The translations under genes were made by a program, and so were the position numbers. This document shows positions 8,725 through 61,859 of a DNA stretch of 64,000 nucleotides, one piece after another. The notes beneath the pieces were generated by a model. That model ran no database searches. It was not told the DNA's origin and saw only the letters and a program-made list of their open reading frames with translations. This stretch comes from Methanomassiliicoccales archaeon (GTDB taxonomy: Archaea; Thermoplasmatota; Thermoplasmata; Methanomassiliicoccales; UBA472): the NCBI GenBank assembly GCA_026394395.1, contig JAPKYK010000005.1, positions 65,500 through 129,499 on the forward strand, in the 5' to 3' direction. Position 1 is the first letter of the stretch. The number at the start of each line of letters is the position of its first letter.

Positions 8725-10584
8725 ATGGACAAGGCCACGGAGAAGCTGTACCGTTCCAAGCTCCTCAGCGCCGAGGAGGCGGTGCTGAAGATCGGCCCCG
8801 GAAGGACGGTGTTCCTGGGGACGGCCTGCGGGGAACCGCAAGCCTTAGTGAAAGCGCTCATGGAGAAGTCCTACGCCATGATCGACAGCGAGATCATCCA
8901 GACGCTCTCCTTGGGGCTGACGCTCTACACCGAGGAGAAGTTCATGGACCAGTTCCGCCTCAACGCCTTCTTCATCGGCCCCAATGTGCGCAACGCGGTC
9001 AACGAGGGGAAGGCGGACTACACGCCGGTGAACCTGTCGGACATCGAAATGTTGTTCGCCAGCGGCCTCAAGCCGGTGGACGTGGCACTCATCCAAGTGG
9101 CTCCCCCGGACCAGGACGGCTACTGTAACCTGGGCGTGTCCGTGGACATCACCAAGTCCGCGGCCATGCACGCCGACGTGGTGATAGCGGAGGTCAACCC
9201 GCACATGCCCCACCTGGGCGGGGATAGCCGCATACATCTAAAGGAGATAGACTACCTGGTGGAGAACGATGGCCCGCTGATGGAGTTCATCGGGGAGACC
9301 GAGGTCTCCAGGGTAGCTCCCCGCATAGGCATGAACGTGGCCGAGCTGATCCCGGACGGAGCGACCATCCAGGTGGGCTACGGCACCATCCCTGACGCCA
9401 TATTGGCGTATCTAAGGAACAAGAAGGACCTGGGGGTCCACACCGAGATGTTCTCGGACGGCATCATCGACCTGGTGCAGAAGGGCGTCATCACCGGCAA
9501 GAAGAAGACGCTGCACCCCGGGAAGGTGGTGGCCTCGTTCTGCATGGGCACCAAGCGCCTCTACGACTTCATCGACGGCAACGAGATGTTCGAGATGTAC
9601 CCGTCGTCGTACACCAACGATCCCTGCATCATCTCCCGCAATGACGACATGATGGCCATCAACTCCGCGCTGGAGATCGACCTCACCGGACAGGTGTGCA
9701 CCGACCAGATCGGCCACCTCTTCTTCTCCGGCATCGGCGGGCAGGCCGACTTCATGCGCGGCGCCGCCCGTTCCAAGGGAGGCAAGGCCATCATCGCCCT
9801 GCCGTCCACCGCGCAGCACCACACCATATCGCGCATCGTCCCCACGCTCACCACCGGGGGCGGGGTCACCACCACCAGGGGCGACGTGCAGTTCGTGGTC
9901 ACCGAGTACGGGGTGGCCGACCTGCGGGGCAAGAGCATAATGGACCGGGCCTTGGCCCTCATCGGCATCTCCCACCCCCGCTTCCGCGGTGAGCTGCTCA
10001 TGCACGCCAAATCGCTCCATTACGTCTACCAGGACCAGCTGGACGCCGGCTACGTGGGCGTATATCCGGAGCAGTACGAGCAGGTCAAGCTAGTGGCCGA
10101 CAACGAGCTGTACATACGGCCGGCCAAGCCTACCGACGAGGGCATGCTCAAGGACATGTTCTACTCATTGACCCAGGCCTCGGTGTATAACCGGTTCATG
10201 GGGCTGAAGCGCAGCATGCCCCACCGCGAGCTACAGCGCATCGTCAACATCGATTACGACACGCGCATGACCGTGTGCAGCTTCGACAACGACGAGGGAG
10301 TGTGGTCCATGGTGGCCTTCGCCATGTACGACCTGGACAAGAAGAGCAACACTGCCGAGATATCCTTCGCCGTGAGGGACAGCTGGCAGAACCGGCGCAT
10401 CGGCACGCTGCTCATGAGCATAATGATCGACATCGCCCGCGAGCGCAAGATTAAGGCCTTCACCGCCGAACTGTTGTCGGAGAACATGCGCATGCTAGAC
10501 CTCTTCTACCGCACCGGGCTCAAGGTGGAGACCAGGCTGGTCGAGGACACTTATCTGGTCACGATCGACCTATGGTCAAAGTGA
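8725..10584 (+). CDS. acetyl-CoA hydrolase/transferase-family domain fused to a Pat-type GNAT acetyltransferase domain
   Basis: The first ~440 aa resemble 4-hydroxybutyrate CoA-transferase / acetyl-CoA hydrolase (GTACGEPQALVKAL, TEMFSDGIIDL, SGIGGQADF). The C-terminal ~160 aa match the Pat GNAT pattern (YIRPAKPTDEGMLKDMFYSLTQASVYNRFMG...NIDYDTRM...AEISFAVRDSWQNRRIGTLLM). Confidence 0.85.
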   Translation: MDKATEKLYRSKLLSAEEAVLKIGPGRTVFLGTACGEPQALVKALMEKSYAMIDSEIIQTLSLGLTLYTEEKFMDQFRLNAFFIGPNVRNAVNEGKADYTPVNLSDIEMLFASGLKPVDVALIQVAPPDQDGYCNLGVSVDITKSAAMHADVVIAEVNPHMPHLGGDSRIHLKEIDYLVENDGPLMEFIGETEVSRVAPRIGMNVAELIPDGATIQVGYGTIPDAILAYLRNKKDLGVHTEMFSDGIIDLVQKGVITGKKKTLHPGKVVASFCMGTKRLYDFIDGNEMFEMYPSSYTNDPCIISRNDDMMAINSALEIDLTGQVCTDQIGHLFFSGIGGQADFMRGAARSKGGKAIIALPSTAQHHTISRIVPTLTTGGGVTTTRGDVQFVVTEYGVADLRGKSIMDRALALIGISHPRFRGELLMHAKSLHYVYQDQLDAGYVGVYPEQYEQVKLVADNELYIRPAKPTDEGMLKDMFYSLTQASVYNRFMGLKRSMPHRELQRIVNIDYDTRMTVCSFDNDEGVWSMVAFAMYDLDKKSNTAEISFAVRDSWQNRRIGTLLMSIMIDIARERKIKAFTAELLSENMRMLDLFYRTGLKVETRLVEDTYLVTIDLWSK

Positions 10585-11316
10585 GCCGCAGTCCGGGCAG
10601 CTGGGGTCCCTGACGAACTGCACCTCGCTGACCTGGTTGCCCTGCAGGTCGAAGAATAGCCCCCGTCCGTCCGGAGGGTCGCCCATTCCAACGATCAGCT
10701 TGATGACCTCCATGGCCTGCAGGGAACCTATCACCCCGGCGGCCGCCCCCAGCACCGGGACCGGTTTGTACCTCGGGGTCAGCTTGGGGAAGGCGCAGCG
10801 CAGGCAGGGACCTCCCGGCACGATGGTGAGCACATGCCCTCCGGCGCCCTCCACCGCCCCGTGCACCAAGGGGACCCGGCGGAACAGGCAATGCTTGTTG
10901 AGCACGTAGCGGGCCTTGGAGTTGTCCAGGCAGTCCACGACCACGTCGGCGTTCTCCAGGACGTAAACGTTGTCCTCCTCCAGCCTCAGGGGCAACGCCT
11001 CTATCATAACCTCTGAGTTCAGGGCCTTCAGCTTCATCCGCGCCGACTCCACCTTGTAGCGGGAAAGTCCGGCGTCCTCCTCGTAGTGCAATATCTGGCG
11101 GTTGAGGTTGGACCCCTCGACCTTCTGGTCGTCGATGAGGATGAGCTTTCCCACCCCCGCCGCCGCTAAATATTGACATACTGGGGACCCCAGTCCGCCG
11201 ATGCCCACCACGGCCACGGACGAGCCGGCCAAGGCGTCCTGGGCCTTCTGTCCGAAACCCTCCATGGAAATCTGACGCGCGTAGCGGTCCCTCATGAGAT
11301 CGCCAGTCAATGACAT
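10576..11316 (-). CDS. ThiF/MoeB/UbaA-family E1-like adenylyltransferase
   Basis: RYARQISMEGFGQKAQDAL, the nucleotide loop VVGIGGLGSPVCQYLAAAGVG, LNRQ, and two CxxC pairs (CLRC, CPDC). The ORF extends to 11442; ATGs at 11346, 11325 and 11316 are all possible starts. Confidence 0.8.
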   Translation of the reverse strand: MSLTGDLMRDRYARQISMEGFGQKAQDALAGSSVAVVGIGGLGSPVCQYLAAAGVGKLILIDDQKVEGSNLNRQILHYEEDAGLSRYKVESARMKLKALNSEVMIEALPLRLEEDNVYVLENADVVVDCLDNSKARYVLNKHCLFRRVPLVHGAVEGAGGHVLTIVPGGPCLRCAFPKLTPRYKPVPVLGAAAGVIGSLQAMEVIKLIVGMGDPPDGRGLFFDLQGNQVSEVQFVRDPSCPDCGSL

Positions 11317-38732: not shown

Positions 38733-38780
38733 ATAAAAGCAAAATAAACGGCCTTAACGATAGTGCATGGCCTCCCCCAT

Positions 38781-38797
38781 ATGGATATATAATCCAT
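38781..38797. promoter_or_regulatory. palindromic operator-like site 1: ATGGAT-ATATA-ATCCAT
   Basis: Read directly. The inverted repeat has perfect 6-bp arms and a 5-nt spacer. Its centre at 38789 is 31 bp from the centre of site 2. Confidence 0.6.
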
Positions 38798-38811
38798 CCA
38801 ATGAAACCGGT

Positions 38812-38828
38812 ATGGATATCTCATCCAT
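38812..38828. promoter_or_regulatory. palindromic operator-like site 2: ATGGAT-ATCTC-ATCCAT
   Basis: Read directly. The arms are perfect 6-bp repeats. The centre at 38820 is ~20 bp upstream of a TATA-like TTTATTA (38840-38846) and 76 nt upstream of the corrinoid-protein ATG. Confidence 0.6.
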
Positions 38829-38839
38829 CCATCCAAGGG

Positions 38840-38846
38840 TTTATTA
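38840..38846 (+). promoter_or_regulatory. TATA-like element (TTTATTA) of the corrinoid-protein gene
   Basis: It is an AT-rich heptamer ~50 nt upstream of the ATG at 38896. The strong SD AGGAGG lies at 38881-38886. The position fits an archaeal promoter, but the TSS is unknown. Confidence 0.35.
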
Positions 38847-38895: not shown

Positions 38896-39531
38896 ATGGC
38901 AAACATGGATGCATTGATCGAGATTGTTGTCAAGGGGAAGATTAAAGAGGCCAAGGGAGCCACCCAGGCGCTCTTGGACCAAGGAGTGACCGCTAAAGAG
39001 ATCATTTTCAAGGGCTTGAGCGAGGCCATGAAGATCGTCGGTGACAAGTACGAGAAGAAGGAGTACTTCCTGCCGCAGGTTCTTCTGTCCGCTCAGACCC
39101 TGTACCAGGGATTGAACGTGGCCCTGCCTAAGCTCGATGCTACCTCCGCTGCAGCCGCCGGAAAGATAGTCATCTGCGTGGTCGAGGGAGATGTGCACGA
39201 CATCGGTAAGAACATCTGCAAGGCCCTGCTGACCGGCGCCGGCAACACCATGTTCGACCTGGGACGCGACGTGCCCCTGAAGGACATCGTGCAGAAGGCT
39301 AAGGACGAGAGCGCCCAGATCATCGCCACCTCAACCCTCATGACCCCCACCCTGGCGGGCATGAAGGAGATCGAGAAGATGCTTAAGGAAGCCGGCCTGA
39401 AGGGCAAGATAAAGACCATGGTTGGTGGCGGCGCTACCTCCTCGGACTTTGCCAAGAGCATCGGCGCAGACGGATGGGGCTACGACGCCAACGAGGCGGT
39501 CCAAGTCGCCATCAAGCTGCTCGCGAAGTAA
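38896..39531 (+). CDS. methyltransferase cognate corrinoid protein (B12-binding, MtmC/MtbC/MtsB-like size)
   Basis: 211 aa from MANMDALIEIV. It has an N-terminal helical cap, the His-on motif GDVHDIGKN, STLMT and MVGGGA. I reject the 14-aa extension in the ORF track. Confidence 0.9.
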   Translation: MANMDALIEIVVKGKIKEAKGATQALLDQGVTAKEIIFKGLSEAMKIVGDKYEKKEYFLPQVLLSAQTLYQGLNVALPKLDATSAAAAGKIVICVVEGDVHDIGKNICKALLTGAGNTMFDLGRDVPLKDIVQKAKDESAQIIATSTLMTPTLAGMKEIEKMLKEAGLKGKIKTMVGGGATSSDFAKSIGADGWGYDANEAVQVAIKLLAK

Positions 39532-39638: not shown

Positions 39639-40418
39639 ATGACCGGAAACATATCCAACGAGACCGTTTCCATAGAGAACGAGATCGTCCATCTTAAGAA
39701 AAGGGTCGAGGAGATGAGCTTGGAGCTCAGGCACGTTGTTGCTCTATTACAATCCTCTCAAGGTTCCCTTTCGGCCAATAACGAACTATTCGATCTGTTG
39801 CGCGAGGAAGCGCGGGAAAAGGCCCTGACCCGGCTCGACGCCGGCATGGCCAAGCGTTGCGACATGCGTAAGGAGTGCCGGGGGAAGTTCGCCGGTTTCC
39901 TGGACGAGAACCTGGAACTCCTGGACCGCCCCCGGATCTCCGAGGCAGACATACATAATAGGACGGAGGCCTTGGAATCTTTGAAGGAAAATGCGGTACC
40001 CGGGAGATGCGACGGATGCTTCAACGAGGTGGGCGCTCTCTTTCAACAGCAGATGCAGCTCATGCGTGCCCTGAAACTGTACCAGAGCCAAGAGGACGTG
40101 CGTAACAGCATCGACATCCTGCCGGAGGCTGAGGTGGTCAAAGACCTTCTCGAACCATTGTCCAACGTCCAGAGGCTAATAATACTCAAATCCCTGCTCA
40201 AGACACCACGCTCCTTCACGGAGCTATCCTCGCTGACCCATCTTCGCGGAGGTAACTTGTTGTTCCATCTGCAGCGTCTGACAGCCTCGGAGCTGATATC
40301 TCAGAGAAGTGGGCGCGGTGAATACGCCCTCTCGGAAAAGGGGATGAGGGCGTTAGAGATGGTGAACGACCTTTACCAGCGGACCACGACGTCCGGTAAC
40401 GGGACCAAAGGAGAATGA
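39639..40418 (+). CDS. transcriptional regulator: N-terminal coiled-coil/Cys4 domain + C-terminal ArsR-like wHTH
   Basis: The C-terminus is LSNVQRLIILKSLLKTPRSFTELSSLTHLRGGNLLFHLQRLTASELISQRSGRGEYALSEKG. The N-terminal half holds RCDMRKEC (Cx5C) and RCDGC (Cx2C). Confidence 0.6.
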   Translation: MTGNISNETVSIENEIVHLKKRVEEMSLELRHVVALLQSSQGSLSANNELFDLLREEAREKALTRLDAGMAKRCDMRKECRGKFAGFLDENLELLDRPRISEADIHNRTEALESLKENAVPGRCDGCFNEVGALFQQQMQLMRALKLYQSQEDVRNSIDILPEAEVVKDLLEPLSNVQRLIILKSLLKTPRSFTELSSLTHLRGGNLLFHLQRLTASELISQRSGRGEYALSEKGMRALEMVNDLYQRTTTSGNGTKGE

Positions 40419-49565: not shown

Positions 49566-49722
49566 GTAATCACGCTAGCGGCCTTAACGAACTATAACTA
49601 TAATTCCATTGCCCCTATCCTCGGGCGCCCGAAAAAGACATGCTGGGACGCTTCGGAATTTACCGGTGCTTTGGGAACAGTATTATAAATGAGGCGATGG
49701 CATTCACCCATCGAGGTTTTGC

Positions 49723-51372
49723 ATGGCATTGGGAGTTGCGCTCGACTTGGGCACAAGTGGCTACCGGGGTCACCTGGTCGATCTGAACAAGAAGGGAAAG
49801 ATTCTGGCTACGGCCATCACCATGAGACACCCCCTGCCGGGCGCCAACATCATGGACCATCTGCATTTCTGGATGGAGAACGGGGCCGACGTCGGGCACC
49901 GCATAATCATCGAGACCGTGGACCGATTGATAGGCACCCTGGGCGCCAAGCCCGAGGAGATCGTCCGGGTATCCGTCTGCGGCAACCCCGCCCAGATGTC
50001 CATGTTCGAGAAGATCGAGATACGCGATCTGGCCTACGCCGGCCAGTCCCTGCTCAAGAGGCTGAACGTAAAGGTACCCGAGAGAAAGGCCCACACCATC
50101 AAGGCCGAGGAGCTGGGCATGAGGTCAGTCAGGCAGACCGCCGAGGTCCGCATACCCCCGTCCATCCGTCACGAGATCGGCGCCGACGCCCTGGCCATGA
50201 TCATGAAGACCGGGCTCATGAACAAAAAGGAGACCTGCATGGTCACGGACTACGGCACCAACGCCGAGATGGGACTGTTCTACAAGGGCGAGCTCTTTAC
50301 CGGTTCGGCAGCCGCCGGACCGGCCATGGAAGGGCAGTCCATTGAAATGGGCATGCTGGCCGCTCCCCAGGCATTGTCCGATGTCATCCTGAACGAAGAT
50401 GGCCGCTGGTACAACGTAGTGCTCAACGAAAATCTGCATCCAGTTAAGTCGTCCTTAGTCGATCCGCGCACCGGTCAGGAGCAGCGGCTGGACGGCGTGA
50501 TCGCCCGGGGCATCACCGGCACCGGCACAGTGGCCGCCATGGCCGTGGGGTTGGAGACAGGCATAATCAAGCTGCCCTACATCGACACCCCCGACCGCAA
50601 GATCCACATGACCAATGGCATACACTTCGGCGAAGAGGACGTGCGCGAAGCAGGCAAGGCCATCGGAGCCATCCGCGCCGGGCACCGCACCCTGATCGAA
50701 GAAGTTGGCGTTGCCGACGAAGATGTAAAGACCATGTACATGTGCGGCGCGTCCGGTACGTACGTGGACCCGATAAAGGCTCAGACCGTAGGGCTCATAC
50801 CCAGGGTCCTGGAAAAGACCGTGCAGGCCGGCAACACCTCGCTGATGATGTCCTATGACATACTGGTCGACGATAACGGGCTGGACCACATGCAGGACGT
50901 GGCCAACGCCATATCCAGCAAGCACATAATGTTCGCCACCTGCAAGGTCTTCGAGGACATATACGTCAACGAGATCGCCTACTGGACCGAGGGCATGTCC
51001 ATGGAGATGTACAATGAAATGGTCAAGTACGCTGGATTGAGGCCCCTGCCGGACATAAAGCGCCCCAAAGAGATCGTGCGCTTAGTTTCGTCCGACATAC
51101 CGGTCATCGGCGCCCGCGGTCTGAGGACCCTTGACGACATAGGCGTGTACCTCATCGGCTCCTTCGAGCACTGCGTCGGCTGCAAGAAATGCCAGAAAGA
51201 GTGCCCGGAATGCGCCCTGCAGGTGTCCTCGATGGGTAACAAGAAATTCCAGATCAGGATAAACACCGAGCGCTGCCTGGGAACCGCCTGCAAGAAGTGC
51301 CAGGCCGTCTGTCCGGAGAGCGTGATGAGCTTCGCCGCCCTGAAGATCGTGAAGAAGGGCGAGGACGCATAA
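49723..51372 (+). CDS. ramA: corrinoid protein reductive activase RamA (ASKHA ATPase + C-terminal 2x[4Fe-4S] ferredoxin domain)
   Basis: ALDLGTSGYRGHLVD at the N-terminus. The C-terminal CVGCKKCQKECPECA and CLGTACKKCQAVCPES match the RamA architecture, with ferredoxin motifs at the C-terminus. Confidence 0.85.
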   Translation: MALGVALDLGTSGYRGHLVDLNKKGKILATAITMRHPLPGANIMDHLHFWMENGADVGHRIIIETVDRLIGTLGAKPEEIVRVSVCGNPAQMSMFEKIEIRDLAYAGQSLLKRLNVKVPERKAHTIKAEELGMRSVRQTAEVRIPPSIRHEIGADALAMIMKTGLMNKKETCMVTDYGTNAEMGLFYKGELFTGSAAAGPAMEGQSIEMGMLAAPQALSDVILNEDGRWYNVVLNENLHPVKSSLVDPRTGQEQRLDGVIARGITGTGTVAAMAVGLETGIIKLPYIDTPDRKIHMTNGIHFGEEDVREAGKAIGAIRAGHRTLIEEVGVADEDVKTMYMCGASGTYVDPIKAQTVGLIPRVLEKTVQAGNTSLMMSYDILVDDNGLDHMQDVANAISSKHIMFATCKVFEDIYVNEIAYWTEGMSMEMYNEMVKYAGLRPLPDIKRPKEIVRLVSSDIPVIGARGLRTLDDIGVYLIGSFEHCVGCKKCQKECPECALQVSSMGNKKFQIRINTERCLGTACKKCQAVCPESVMSFAALKIVKKGEDA

Positions 51373-57777: not shown

Positions 57778-57885
57778 AGTGATCCTCAGCTCAAAACTCC
57801 TTTCTATTTTTTCATCTTTTCTGAACATAAGTCCATATATATTACATAATAATGAGTAATTCGCAAATATTTTGCAGGCTAGGCC

Positions 57886-58371
57886 ATGGACACCATTGAC
57901 CTGAAGATCCTCAGGATGCTGCGCAAGAACGCCCGTGAAGGGCTCAGCGCCATAGCCGAACAGCTCGGGGTGTCCAAGGCCACGGTCAGCAGGCGCATAA
58001 CCCGCCTGGAGAAAGATGGTTACGTCAACGCCTACACCATGCAGGTGAACACGGCCAAGATCGGCCTCATGCGCGCCCTCATCGGCCTGCAGATCGTGGG
58101 AGTGCCCCTTGCGGTGGTCATCGACGAGCTGAAGAAATACCCCGGGATCCAGTACGTCTACAAGGTGTTCGGGGACCATTCGCTCATCTGCGAGATCTAC
58201 TCCACCAGCGTGGACAGCCTGTACGACCTCATCCAGGACAAGATCGTCAACATTCCCAACGTGCAGCGGGTGGAGGTCGACATTATCATCGAACGCATTC
58301 CCATCAACGAAGATGCCATGTTCGACCTGGCCATTCCCATGGCGGCGAGCGAGGGCGGGCTGGAGAATTAG
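57886..58371 (+). CDS. Lrp/AsnC-family transcriptional regulator
   Basis: MDTIDLKILRMLRKNAREGLSAIAEQLGVSKATVSRRITRLEKDGYV plus a C-terminal RAM-like domain. Confidence 0.85.
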   Translation: MDTIDLKILRMLRKNAREGLSAIAEQLGVSKATVSRRITRLEKDGYVNAYTMQVNTAKIGLMRALIGLQIVGVPLAVVIDELKKYPGIQYVYKVFGDHSLICEIYSTSVDSLYDLIQDKIVNIPNVQRVEVDIIIERIPINEDAMFDLAIPMAASEGGLEN

Positions 58372-60238: not shown

Positions 60239-60390
60239 ACGACGATTCGATTTAATATTCGTTCATCACAAAAAAATTAACGAACTTAATTATTGTTTAT
60301 ATTTAATATTTTGAATTTTAAAAAATTTTTGGGCGTTAAAACGAGTGCGTTTTCATCTGGGAAAGTACAAAAATTAAGCTATTGTTTAAC

Positions 60391-60411
60391 ATGGATGGAT
60401 AATCCATCCAT
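60391..60411. promoter_or_regulatory. perfect 21-bp palindrome ATGGATGGAT-A-ATCCATCCAT upstream of mcrB (contains ATGGAT-N5-ATCCAT)
   Basis: Read directly. The arms are 10 bp. The centre at 60401 is ~19 bp upstream of a TATA-like TTATATT (60420-60426) and 127 nt upstream of the mcrB ATG. Confidence 0.6.
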
Positions 60412-60419
60412 CATCAAGC

Positions 60420-60426
60420 TTATATT
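60420..60426 (+). promoter_or_regulatory. TATA-like element (TTATATT) of the mcr operon (candidate)
   Basis: It is an AT-rich heptamer ~100 nt upstream of the mcrB ATG. A second AT-rich candidate exists at ~60296-60310. The TSS is unknown. Confidence 0.3.
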
Positions 60427-60527
60427 CTAACGCAACCTTCTCGAGTCCGCAAGGGGAGCCGGTTTTCTTGAGTGCAATGCAAGCGCATCTGCTCGAGAGG
60501 ACCGAGTTATTGAAAAGGAGGTAAAAA

Positions 60528-61859
60528 ATGGCAAAATACAAGGACAAAGTGGACTTGTATGACGACAGAGGCAAACTGATTGAGAAGGATGTGCCTCTCG
60601 AAGCAATAAGTCCGTTAAACAACGCCGCCATTAAGCGAACCATCTCTCTGACGAAGAGGACGATCGCAGTCAACCTCGAGGGTATTGAGAAAGGTCTCAA
60701 GACCGGAGCGGTTGGCGGATTGAACATCAACAACAGAAAGCTGGACCTCGCAGTAGTGGCGAACGCTGGCAAGTTGGAAAAGTTGATCAGGGATAAGATC
60801 AAAGTCTTGAAGGACGACGACACCGAGATCAAGACCTTGGCGGAAGGCAAGAGAATGATCGTTACTTGCCCCTCGGCCAGGATCGACTCGGGTGCTGAAT
60901 ACACCACTGGATTCACCGCCGTCGCTGCCGCGGTCACTGAGGCCATCATCGACACGTTCAACGTGGACATGTTCGAGGCCTCGATGGTCAAGGCCGCAGT
61001 CTGGGGGAGATATCCGCAGACCATCAACATGTTGGGATCGAACCTCAGGACAATCCTGGACGTTCCCCAGCTAAATGAAGGTACCGGTTACGCCCTCAGG
61101 AACATCACGGCCAACCACATAGTAATGCTGACCGACAGGAACGCCATGAACGCTGCCGCCCTATCCGCTATCTACGAGACCGTCGCGGCCTACGAGATGG
61201 GAGATGCGATCGGCAACTTCGAGAGAACGCACCTGTTGTCCCTGGCTTATCAGGGCCTGAACGCCAACAACCTGGTCTACAGCTGGGTCAAGGAGAACGG
61301 CAAGACCGGCACCGTCGGTGATGTCGTCGCCTCAATGGTTGGCAGGGCTTTGGAAGACAAGGTCATCAGGAAAGGAAAGAAGTTCCCATCCGGATTCGTT
61401 GAATACAACTGCACTGACTTCCCGCTGTGGAACGCATACACCTCCGCTGGTATGCTGGCGGCAATCTGTGTGAACATCGGGGCCGCAAGGGCCGCGCAGG
61501 GTATCCCGTCCACCATCTTGTACTACAACGACCTGGTAGAGCACGAGACCAGCCTGCCCGGTGTAGACTATGGCAGGGCCATGGGTACATCCGTCGGTAT
61601 GTCCTTCTTCAGCCACTCCATCTATGGTGGTGGCGGTCCGGGACTGTTCCACGGAAACCACGTGGTCACGAGACATGCGAAGGGAACCGTCAATCCCGTC
61701 ATCGCCGCCGGGTGCGCCTTGGACGCTGGTACCCAGTACTTCAGCGCTGAGAACACCTCCCTGGTAATGAAGGAAGTGTTCGGTACCGTCCCAGAGTTCA
61801 ACAGCCCGATGAAGATGGTCGGTAAGGAGGCCAAGAAGTGGAAGGAACAGGGTGCTTGA
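60528..61859 (+). CDS. mcrB: methyl-coenzyme M reductase beta subunit
   Basis: [60 protein letters not shown]... is full-length McrB (443 aa). The SD is AAGGAGGT. Confidence 0.97.

Follow-up and report, generated by a model that had tools for sequence, protein, structure and literature searches.

A palindromic operator-type element shared by the predicted promoters of mcrBDGA, a corrinoid protein gene and a winged-helix regulator gene in Methanomassiliicoccales

The locus and its promoters

The DNA analysed here is a stretch of 64,000 nt (hereafter, the window; GC content around 59 %) from a metagenome-assembled genome of the Methanomassiliicoccales. Searches with Pfam and NCBIfam place the corrinoid protein gene that is central to this work between a radical-SAM gene and an ArsR-like gene; further downstream are two genes for URO-D methyltransferases, cobW and RACo, and then the genes for Lrp, ycaO, tfuA and mcrBDG(A). 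The corrinoid protein is 100 % identical to MCX6651494.1, and the genes for MCX6651494, MCX6651514 (Lrp), MCX6651517 (McrB) and MCX6651525, a regulator described below, are all found on one contig of 183,412 bp. The relevant features are collected in Table 1.

Table 1. Coordinates, within the window, of the putative operators, neighbouring promoter motifs and genes discussed in the text.
Feature	Coordinates	Strand	Basis or remark
Second conserved promoter motif TTAACGATAG, upstream of the corrinoid operators	38754..38763	+	Conserved in L033, L036 and L038
Putative distal corrinoid operator TGGATATATAATCCATCCA	38782..38800	no strand	Contains site 1 (38781-38797)
Putative proximal corrinoid operator TGGATATCTCATCCATCCA (38813-38831) plus a third phased TCCA (38832-35)	38813..38835	no strand	Contains site 2
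Corrinoid gene: purine stretch TCCAAGGG, predicted as BRE-like, and predicted TATA box TTTATTA (38840-38846)	38832..38846	+	Read from sequence
Corrinoid protein gene (B12-binding_2 and B12-binding), putative target	38896..39531	+	Pfam, NCBIfam
ArsR-like wHTH gene, candidate of the sequence-only reading, considered unlikely	39639..40418	+	Weak HTH_5 match
Lrp/AsnC regulator gene, rival candidate	57886..58371	+	Pfam
CTATTGTTTAA block directly abutting the mcrB operator	60379..60389	+	CAAT(T/C)GTTTA in all mcrB loci
Putative mcrB operator TGGATGGA-TAA-TCCATCCA	60392..60410	no strand	Perfect 8-3-8 palindrome; 10-1-10 as 60391-60411
BRE-like TCATCAAGC and predicted TATA box TTATATT (60420-60426) of mcrBDGA	60411..60426	+	Read from sequence
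mcrB, first gene of mcrBDGA, putative target operon	60528..61859	+	Pfam MCR_beta_N, MCR_beta

Twin palindromes upstream of the corrinoid protein gene

A sequence-only reading of the window had described two perfect ATGGAT-N5-ATCCAT palindromes in front of the corrinoid protein gene, and its coordinates and sequences for both proved correct on re-reading: site 1 is ATGGATATATAATCCAT (38781-38797) and site 2 is ATGGATATCTCATCCAT (38812-38828). Their centres are 31 bp apart and 20 bp separate the centre of site 2 from a TTTATTA (38840-38846), both as had been described; the gene starts at 38896 and is preceded by AGGAGG. The full copy that had been noticed upstream of mcrB (60391-60411) is likewise there, containing the motif in two overlapping registers (starting at 60391 and 60395), and the 12-mer common to site 1 and the mcrB site is ATAATCCATCCA.

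The exact motif had been considered very rare, and indeed it matches the window four times (38781, 38812, 60391 and 60395) versus none in 100 dinucleotide-preserving shuffles. When two mismatches were allowed there were five matches in the window versus 3.08 by chance, that is, no excess; the sole added match, ATGGAAGGGCAGTCCAT (50326-50342), is inside the RACo coding sequence and was rejected as a regulatory site, since it is a conserved coding segment that recurs in the RACo genes of relatives. Scanning the window with the core TGGAT-N5-ATCCA and up to one mismatch returned nothing beyond the known sites, and the hexamers ATGGAT and ATCCAT by themselves occur at ordinary frequency. The looser ATGGAA half-sites pointed out upstream of mtaA (47282) and of the COG0523 operon (49604) can indeed be seen, yet the orthologous promoters of the related locus L033 do not keep them.

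Syntenic orthologues of the corrinoid gene were collected by protein identity, and one more locus, L091, was added from a metagenome scan. The corrinoid promoters of L033, L036, L038 and L091 contain TGGAT[G/A]-N5-TCCATCCA in the same register, 9 bp ahead of TTAT, and L162 has, at the corresponding position, a form that is more degenerate. Across the corrinoid sites no variation is seen in the right arm, TCCATCCA, and the inner left TGGA unit is degenerate; the succession of TCCATCCA, 8-9 nt and TTAT is kept in all the corrinoid and mcrB promoters compared. The twin arrangement is thus real in the window, but among the orthologues it is kept only in the closest one, L033 (corrinoid protein 87 % identical), where the sites are again 31 bp apart and the counterpart of the distal operator is TGGATGTATAATCCATCCA; L036, L038 and L091 lack the distal site and carry the proximal one only.

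The ArsR-like, Cys4-wHTH protein encoded next to the corrinoid gene had been put forward, together with the Lrp protein, as a possible regulator, but both have less support than a better candidate encoded just outside the window. It is very improbable that the ArsR-like protein binds the twin sites: in the window and L033 its gene is the neighbour of the corrinoid one, but L036 has a gene for a DUF308 protein in its place and L038 one for a YdjM protein, with the operator still there, and homologues are found in none of the mcr loci. Moreover, the protein is only 61 % identical to its L033 counterpart, versus 87 % for the corrinoid protein. A gene of this kind conserved beside the operator promoter, as would be characteristic of an ArsR/SmtB regulator, was found in the window and L033 only.

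The mcrB promoter

The site upstream of the mcrB start codon, at 60528, is a longer palindrome, ATGGATGGAT-A-ATCCATCCAT. For comparison we used thirty fetched loci encoding McrB relatives, and TGGATGGA-NNN-TCCATCCA was present at the same place in all the Methanomassiliicoccales loci that extend far enough upstream, with the exception of L029. Both arms match exactly in 26 related loci, L012 shows one mismatch, and the site is also kept in L160, from a more distant lineage. In all, the 8-bp arms are invariant in 28 of the 29 Methanomassiliicoccales mcrB promoters, with a single mismatch in the remaining one, and the 3-bp spacer varies; these 29 promoters represent 21 distinct 27-mers and a McrB identity of 67-90 %. 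The right arm is followed by a purine-rich, BRE-like stretch of 9 bp and then by TTATAT, and this 9-bp gap is constant in all mcrB loci. L029, which belongs to a Methanomassiliicoccaceae lineage and has a McrB identity of 62 %, contains a different palindrome, TGGTGATAATCACCA, at the position of the mcrB operator (L029 9835-9849).

Two other elements were observed around this promoter. Most mcrB loci share a conserved GTTAAA...TCTGG block (window 60337-60362), which precedes the mcrB operator by about 50 nt. Additionally, the 5′ leader of mcrB (window 60460-60504) contains a conserved stem-loop, CGGTTTTCTTGAG...CTCGAGAGGACCG, with an invariant CGCAAGGGG just before it; in a comparison of 12 loci, 9 of its 16 predicted pairs showed compensatory changes, and the stem-loop did not have a match in Rfam.

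A third class of sites in the promoter of a regulator gene

Every fetched locus that reaches far enough contains GGATGGAT-N5-ATCCATCC at 7-9 kb downstream of mcrB. This site is situated between atwA-mcrC, with atwA coding for MCR component A2 (TIGR03269), and a divergent gene for a protein of about 320 aa with wHTH, DUF4443 and DUF2111 domains. On the strand of this putative regulator gene the order is predicted TATA box, palindrome, 1-5 nt and ATG, both in 17 loci and in L160, L166 and, with a degenerate palindrome, L164 (56 % identity for L160 and 47 % for L164). This spacing fits a leaderless transcript, which would leave the operator at roughly -25 to -5, the classic position of archaeal repressors. 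We preferred a TATA box placed immediately before the palindrome because it fits such a leaderless start, and rejected a central TATATAA, only about 18 nt from the ATG, as the TATA box of the regulator gene. Between operator and atwA the distance ranges from 92 to 430 nt across loci, so that atwA is probably not a direct target; since the spacing to the regulator ATG is fixed, atwA-mcrC were dropped as direct targets.

In the genome of the window the regulator is MCX6651525.1, encoded eight genes after McrB (MCX6651517.1) and just past the end of the window. In L166, a contig of the same sequencing sample that also contains atwA-mcrC and the mmp cluster, the regulator promoter is ATATTTAT-GGATGGATTATATATCCATCC-CATA-ATG. 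Read on the other strand it contains TGGATATATAATCCATCCA, a 19-mer identical to the operator at corrinoid site 1.

Because the palindrome contains ATGGAT, a false start codon arises upstream (MDGLYIHPT...; L004 18763-18790 and equivalents), and this explains why mechanical ORF calls give 329 aa for a protein of 319-321 aa in databases. The genes situated after mcrA (L004 14579-17804, and equivalents) code for a DUF2098 protein, a 180-aa protein, a CMD-family protein, a DUF6951 protein and a 610-aa radical-SAM protein of the KamA family, and are followed by the regulator gene. L162 contains two paralogues of the three-domain regulator gene (1626-2609 and 10001-10963), one of which is inside an mmp cluster (DUF2112, DUF2102, DUF2113, DUF2099).

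Definition and specificity of the element

The full element is TGGATGGA-N3-TCCATCCA, composed of phased TGGA/TCCA units, and every site contains the core TGGAT-N5-ATCCA. The 6-5-6 palindrome of the sequence-only reading is therefore its common core but forms part of a longer phased structure. Searching non-redundant Methanomassiliicoccales loci, 635,636 nt altogether, for TGGATGGANNNTCCATCCA and allowing up to two mismatches gave 51 matches, versus 0.2 in shuffles; 50 of the 51 were at the promoter of mcrB, the corrinoid gene or the regulator gene, the exception being a conserved coding match in a RACo gene. The motif was missing from other methanogenesis-related promoters, including those of mtaA-like URO-D genes, cobW, RACo, ycaO-tfuA, mtmCB and the pyl genes.

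The sequence-only reading had proposed that corrinoid gene and mcrB share an operator with the same geometry just upstream of BRE/TATA, and had made this depend on the motif not being scattered without promoter bias over the genome and on its presence in orthologous promoters of relatives. In the loci covered the proposal withstands both checks: with up to two mismatches all but one of the matches in the 636 kb of related DNA are at promoters, and the mcrB and corrinoid sites are kept across the order, so that the orthologous promoters support the proposal. No described regulator had been known to that reading and our literature search likewise found none, nor anything relevant on this element or on a regulator for it in Methanomassiliicoccales.

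Fixed arms with a free spacer, a fixed position with respect to the core promoter, and a large excess over chance together with restriction to promoters are features of operators. The first two of these point to a sequence-specific, dimeric DNA-binding protein rather than to a hairpin. Indeed, it is extremely improbable that the palindromes are RNA or DNA hairpins, such as terminators of the upstream genes or attenuators, or copied small repeats. For the mcrB palindrome folding is predicted (-12 kcal/mol, z -3.2), but the hairpins of the corrinoid sites are weak (-4.8 and -8 kcal/mol, z -1 to -2), and the arms are conserved in sequence with no compensatory changes seen. Since the left inner corrinoid unit decays while the right arm, TCCATCCA, stays, pairing is not the preserved feature. 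Moreover, the palindromes are not followed by a T-run, their register of about 9 bp to the TATA box is kept order-wide, and at mcrB and the corrinoid gene they are upstream of the predicted TATA boxes; a search of Rfam with the region 38000-61000 did not produce any match. Judged by their conservation, then, the palindromes are a real, order-wide cis-regulatory element of the transcription-factor operator type for which we found no previous description, with the archaeal TATA and BRE assignments being predictions from sequence in all three promoter classes.

A candidate cognate factor

The product of the regulator gene matches the Pfam families PH0730-like_N (PF22167; 40.5 bits, cut-off 30.2) and PF14544 (98.2 bits), with DUF4443 and DUF2111 present, and thus has the N-terminal wHTH of PH0730-like proteins together with DUF4443. 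It matches PDB 2P8T with an E value of 1e-12 and a Foldseek TM score of 0.77. Searching with its AlphaFold model (pLDDT 83), Foldseek retrieved 2P8T, IclR-family regulators, GAF domains and the operator-bound DNA-binding domain of CggR (7OYK); the latter superposes on the candidate wHTH with an rmsd of 0.8 Å over 63 residues. The candidate was not assigned to the SorC/CggR family, with CggR_N at 29.3 bits, below the 30-bit cut-off, and without a SorC domain, and Pfam did not identify any NrpR domain in it. The recognition helix, GEGSTRTIL, is nearly invariant throughout the three-domain family. This form is rare, comprising about a dozen clusters at 50 % identity, and the two-domain PH0730-like proteins are widespread; among PH0730-like, DUF4443 and DUF2111 proteins, our literature search found no member with a described function.

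The position of the palindrome in the promoter of this gene, which resembles autoregulation, and the gene neighbourhood suggest, with slightly better than even confidence, that the wHTH-DUF4443-DUF2111 protein is the cognate factor of the operator. Locus L029 keeps the synteny of DUF2098, CMD, DUF6951, atwA and mcrC, but there is no regulator gene there and no motif at mcrB; between DUF6951 and atwA (L029 14300-16400) the genes for the KamA-like radical-SAM protein and the DUF2111 regulator are both missing. This joint loss of regulator gene and motif is a single case, and the gene could be situated elsewhere in the L029 genome.

The factor might instead be encoded elsewhere in the genome, with the DUF2111 gene being merely another of its targets. 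The neighbourhoods examined spanned only about 20 kb, and other archaea contain this palindrome with no three-domain regulator in the vicinity. Nevertheless, this is unlikely in view of the site between the TATA box and the ATG of the wHTH gene, a classic signature of autoregulation that is conserved order-wide, and of the absence of both regulator gene and motif from L029.

Lrp-family proteins are known as upstream activators in archaea, and the Lrp/AsnC protein encoded upstream of ycaO-tfuA-mcrBDGA could act on the palindromes in the manner of Ptr2. The order Lrp, ycaO, tfuA and mcrB is syntenic in about 26 mcr loci, although not in L027 or L029. Still, we regard this protein as quite an unlikely cognate factor: its own promoter (57778-57885) does not contain the motif, it would leave the TATA-to-ATG operator of the DUF2111 gene unexplained, and L027 keeps both the motif and the DUF2111 regulator, yet it has no Lrp homologue within 10 kb on either side.

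Possible mode of action

We consider it reasonably probable that the palindromes are operators of a winged-helix factor, with the DUF2111 regulator as the candidate, which would repress its own gene and probably activate mcrBDGA and the corrinoid gene. Such a factor would be a sequence-specific, probably dimeric, winged-helix transcription factor that binds the palindromes. In the promoters of mcrBDGA and the corrinoid gene the element stops about 9 bp short of the predicted TATA box and abuts the predicted BRE, and archaeal activators recruit TFB/TBP from such a position. In the window promoter, the second corrinoid copy, three helical turns further upstream, may permit cooperative binding; with centres 31 bp apart, two dimers would come to lie on the same side of the DNA. 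In the promoter of the regulator gene, the element fills the gap that separates the predicted TATA box from what would be a leaderless start codon, and a protein bound to it would block RNA polymerase. The two sensor-like domains of the candidate would tie the synthesis of MCR to a ligand.

The sites of archaeal activators, such as Ptr2, TFB-RF1, and SurR or TrmBL1 in their activating mode, are situated upstream of the BRE. For mcr and the corrinoid gene we prefer activation, because an upstream site abutting the BRE resembles these activator sites and occurs here at genes that need strong expression; by this analogy, activation rather than repression appears moderately probable at both. Alternatively, the factor could repress all three promoters, including those where the site is adjacent to the BRE.

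Occurrence outside methanogens and a second promoter motif

A metagenome scan with TGGATNNNNNATCCATCCA produced at least 120 matches, mostly chance ones in unrelated DNA, and a regulon is not definable from them. Among the matches listed, perfect TGGATGGA-N3/N7-TCCATCCA palindromes were observed in other archaea, in L059 (1030-1052), L076 (4175-4193, the same as L168 11609-11627) and L148 (around 10658-10676), which shows that the motif also exists outside methanogens. As read from sequence, the order in L059, L076 and L148 is TATA, palindrome and ATG. The palindrome precedes the gene for a membrane protein resembling an ECF S-component, followed by DUF4430, in L059 and L148, and is beside a gene for a fused ECF ATPase and CbiQ in L076, a contig named Nitrososphaeria. 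It also generates false starts in L148 and L076 (MDNPSM and MDDPSM, respectively), as in the regulator gene. The three-domain regulator was not seen on these non-methanogen contigs. We also examined if the motif was tied to the wider PH0730-like family, but dropped this: L168 (Nitrososphaeria) has a two-domain gene 8.8 kb from the palindrome, whose product differs in the recognition helix and whose own promoter does not contain the motif. The location of the palindrome before ECF-type uptake genes hints at an older circuit that would have originally controlled the uptake of corrinoids or metals.

The operators are accompanied by an AT-rich motif, TTAACGAT(A/T)G or CAAT(T/C)GTT(T)AA, at the corrinoid gene, at mcrB and in the intergenic region between the regulator gene and atwA (L004 18809-18820). 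The block found at mcrB, CTATTGTTTAA, is like a reverse complement of the motif of the corrinoid promoter, TTAACGATAG. The AT-rich motif is also present upstream of mtaA (around 47310) and between cobW and RACo (49580-49590), and is conserved in the orthologues. TTAACGA occurs nine times in the window versus 2.55 expected. This AT-rich motif may be the site of a second factor.

Relation to known regulators and significance

The operators of NrpR have the form GGAA-N6-TTCC. NrpR is a methanogen wHTH regulator with two C-terminal sensor domains that binds inverted-repeat operators, two of them at nif, and is released by 2-oxoglutarate (PMC4902934). The candidate described here resembles NrpR of Methanococcus maripaludis (nif/glnA) in being a methanogen wHTH protein with two sensor-like domains associated with short inverted repeats. 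However, the operator core is TGGA-N7-TCCA, with another spacing, and is not of the NrpR type; also, NrpR represses from downstream of the TATA box, whereas two of the three promoters have the site upstream of the BRE.

SurR and TrmBL1 of the Thermococcales use one palindrome to activate, when it is upstream of BRE/TATA, or to repress, when it is downstream of TATA. There is a similar split in position between mcrB and the corrinoid gene, with the site upstream, and the regulator's own promoter, with the site downstream of TATA, although the protein families and motifs are unrelated and the geometry is in our case read from the DNA. PH0730 (PDB 2P8T) has the same wHTH and DUF4443 as the candidate, which adds DUF2111; PH0730 is a structural-genomics protein for which no function or operator has been described. 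As for CggR/SorC, the wHTH superposes on 7OYK, but the candidate is without the SorC sugar-binding domain.

The Msr proteins are transcription factors for genes of the methanogenic pathway in Methanosarcina. Methanogenic-pathway genes in Methanosarcina are also controlled by MreA, a protein of the TrmB family (PMC3419521). The system proposed here would share with MreA and Msr the control of methanogenic-pathway genes, but it involves other protein families and another order. We know of no motif shared with them.

Methyl-coenzyme M reductase makes nearly all biological methane, and its transcriptional control is poorly understood; for the Methanomassiliicoccales, which are methanogens of gut and rumen and targets for methane mitigation, we found no description of the transcriptional control of mcr in the literature searched. 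What appears to be new here is the putative regulon, which in the loci covered is composed of mcrBDGA, the corrinoid gene and the regulator gene and may be larger or different over whole genomes, and a candidate regulator from the PH0730-like/DUF2111 family. More tentatively, and as a possibility that we would not yet call probable, the three-domain protein could be an order-wide master switch of methane formation: a ligand-sensing factor, encoded beside genes for the activation of MCR (atwA, mcrC, mmp), that would bind (TGGA)2 palindromes, drive mcrBDGA and the corrinoid gene, repress itself and couple the synthesis of MCR to cofactor supply or activation state. The analysis offers a precisely defined operator, a three-promoter regulon and a named candidate protein; if confirmed, it would give a function to two DUF families and a possible control point of methane output.
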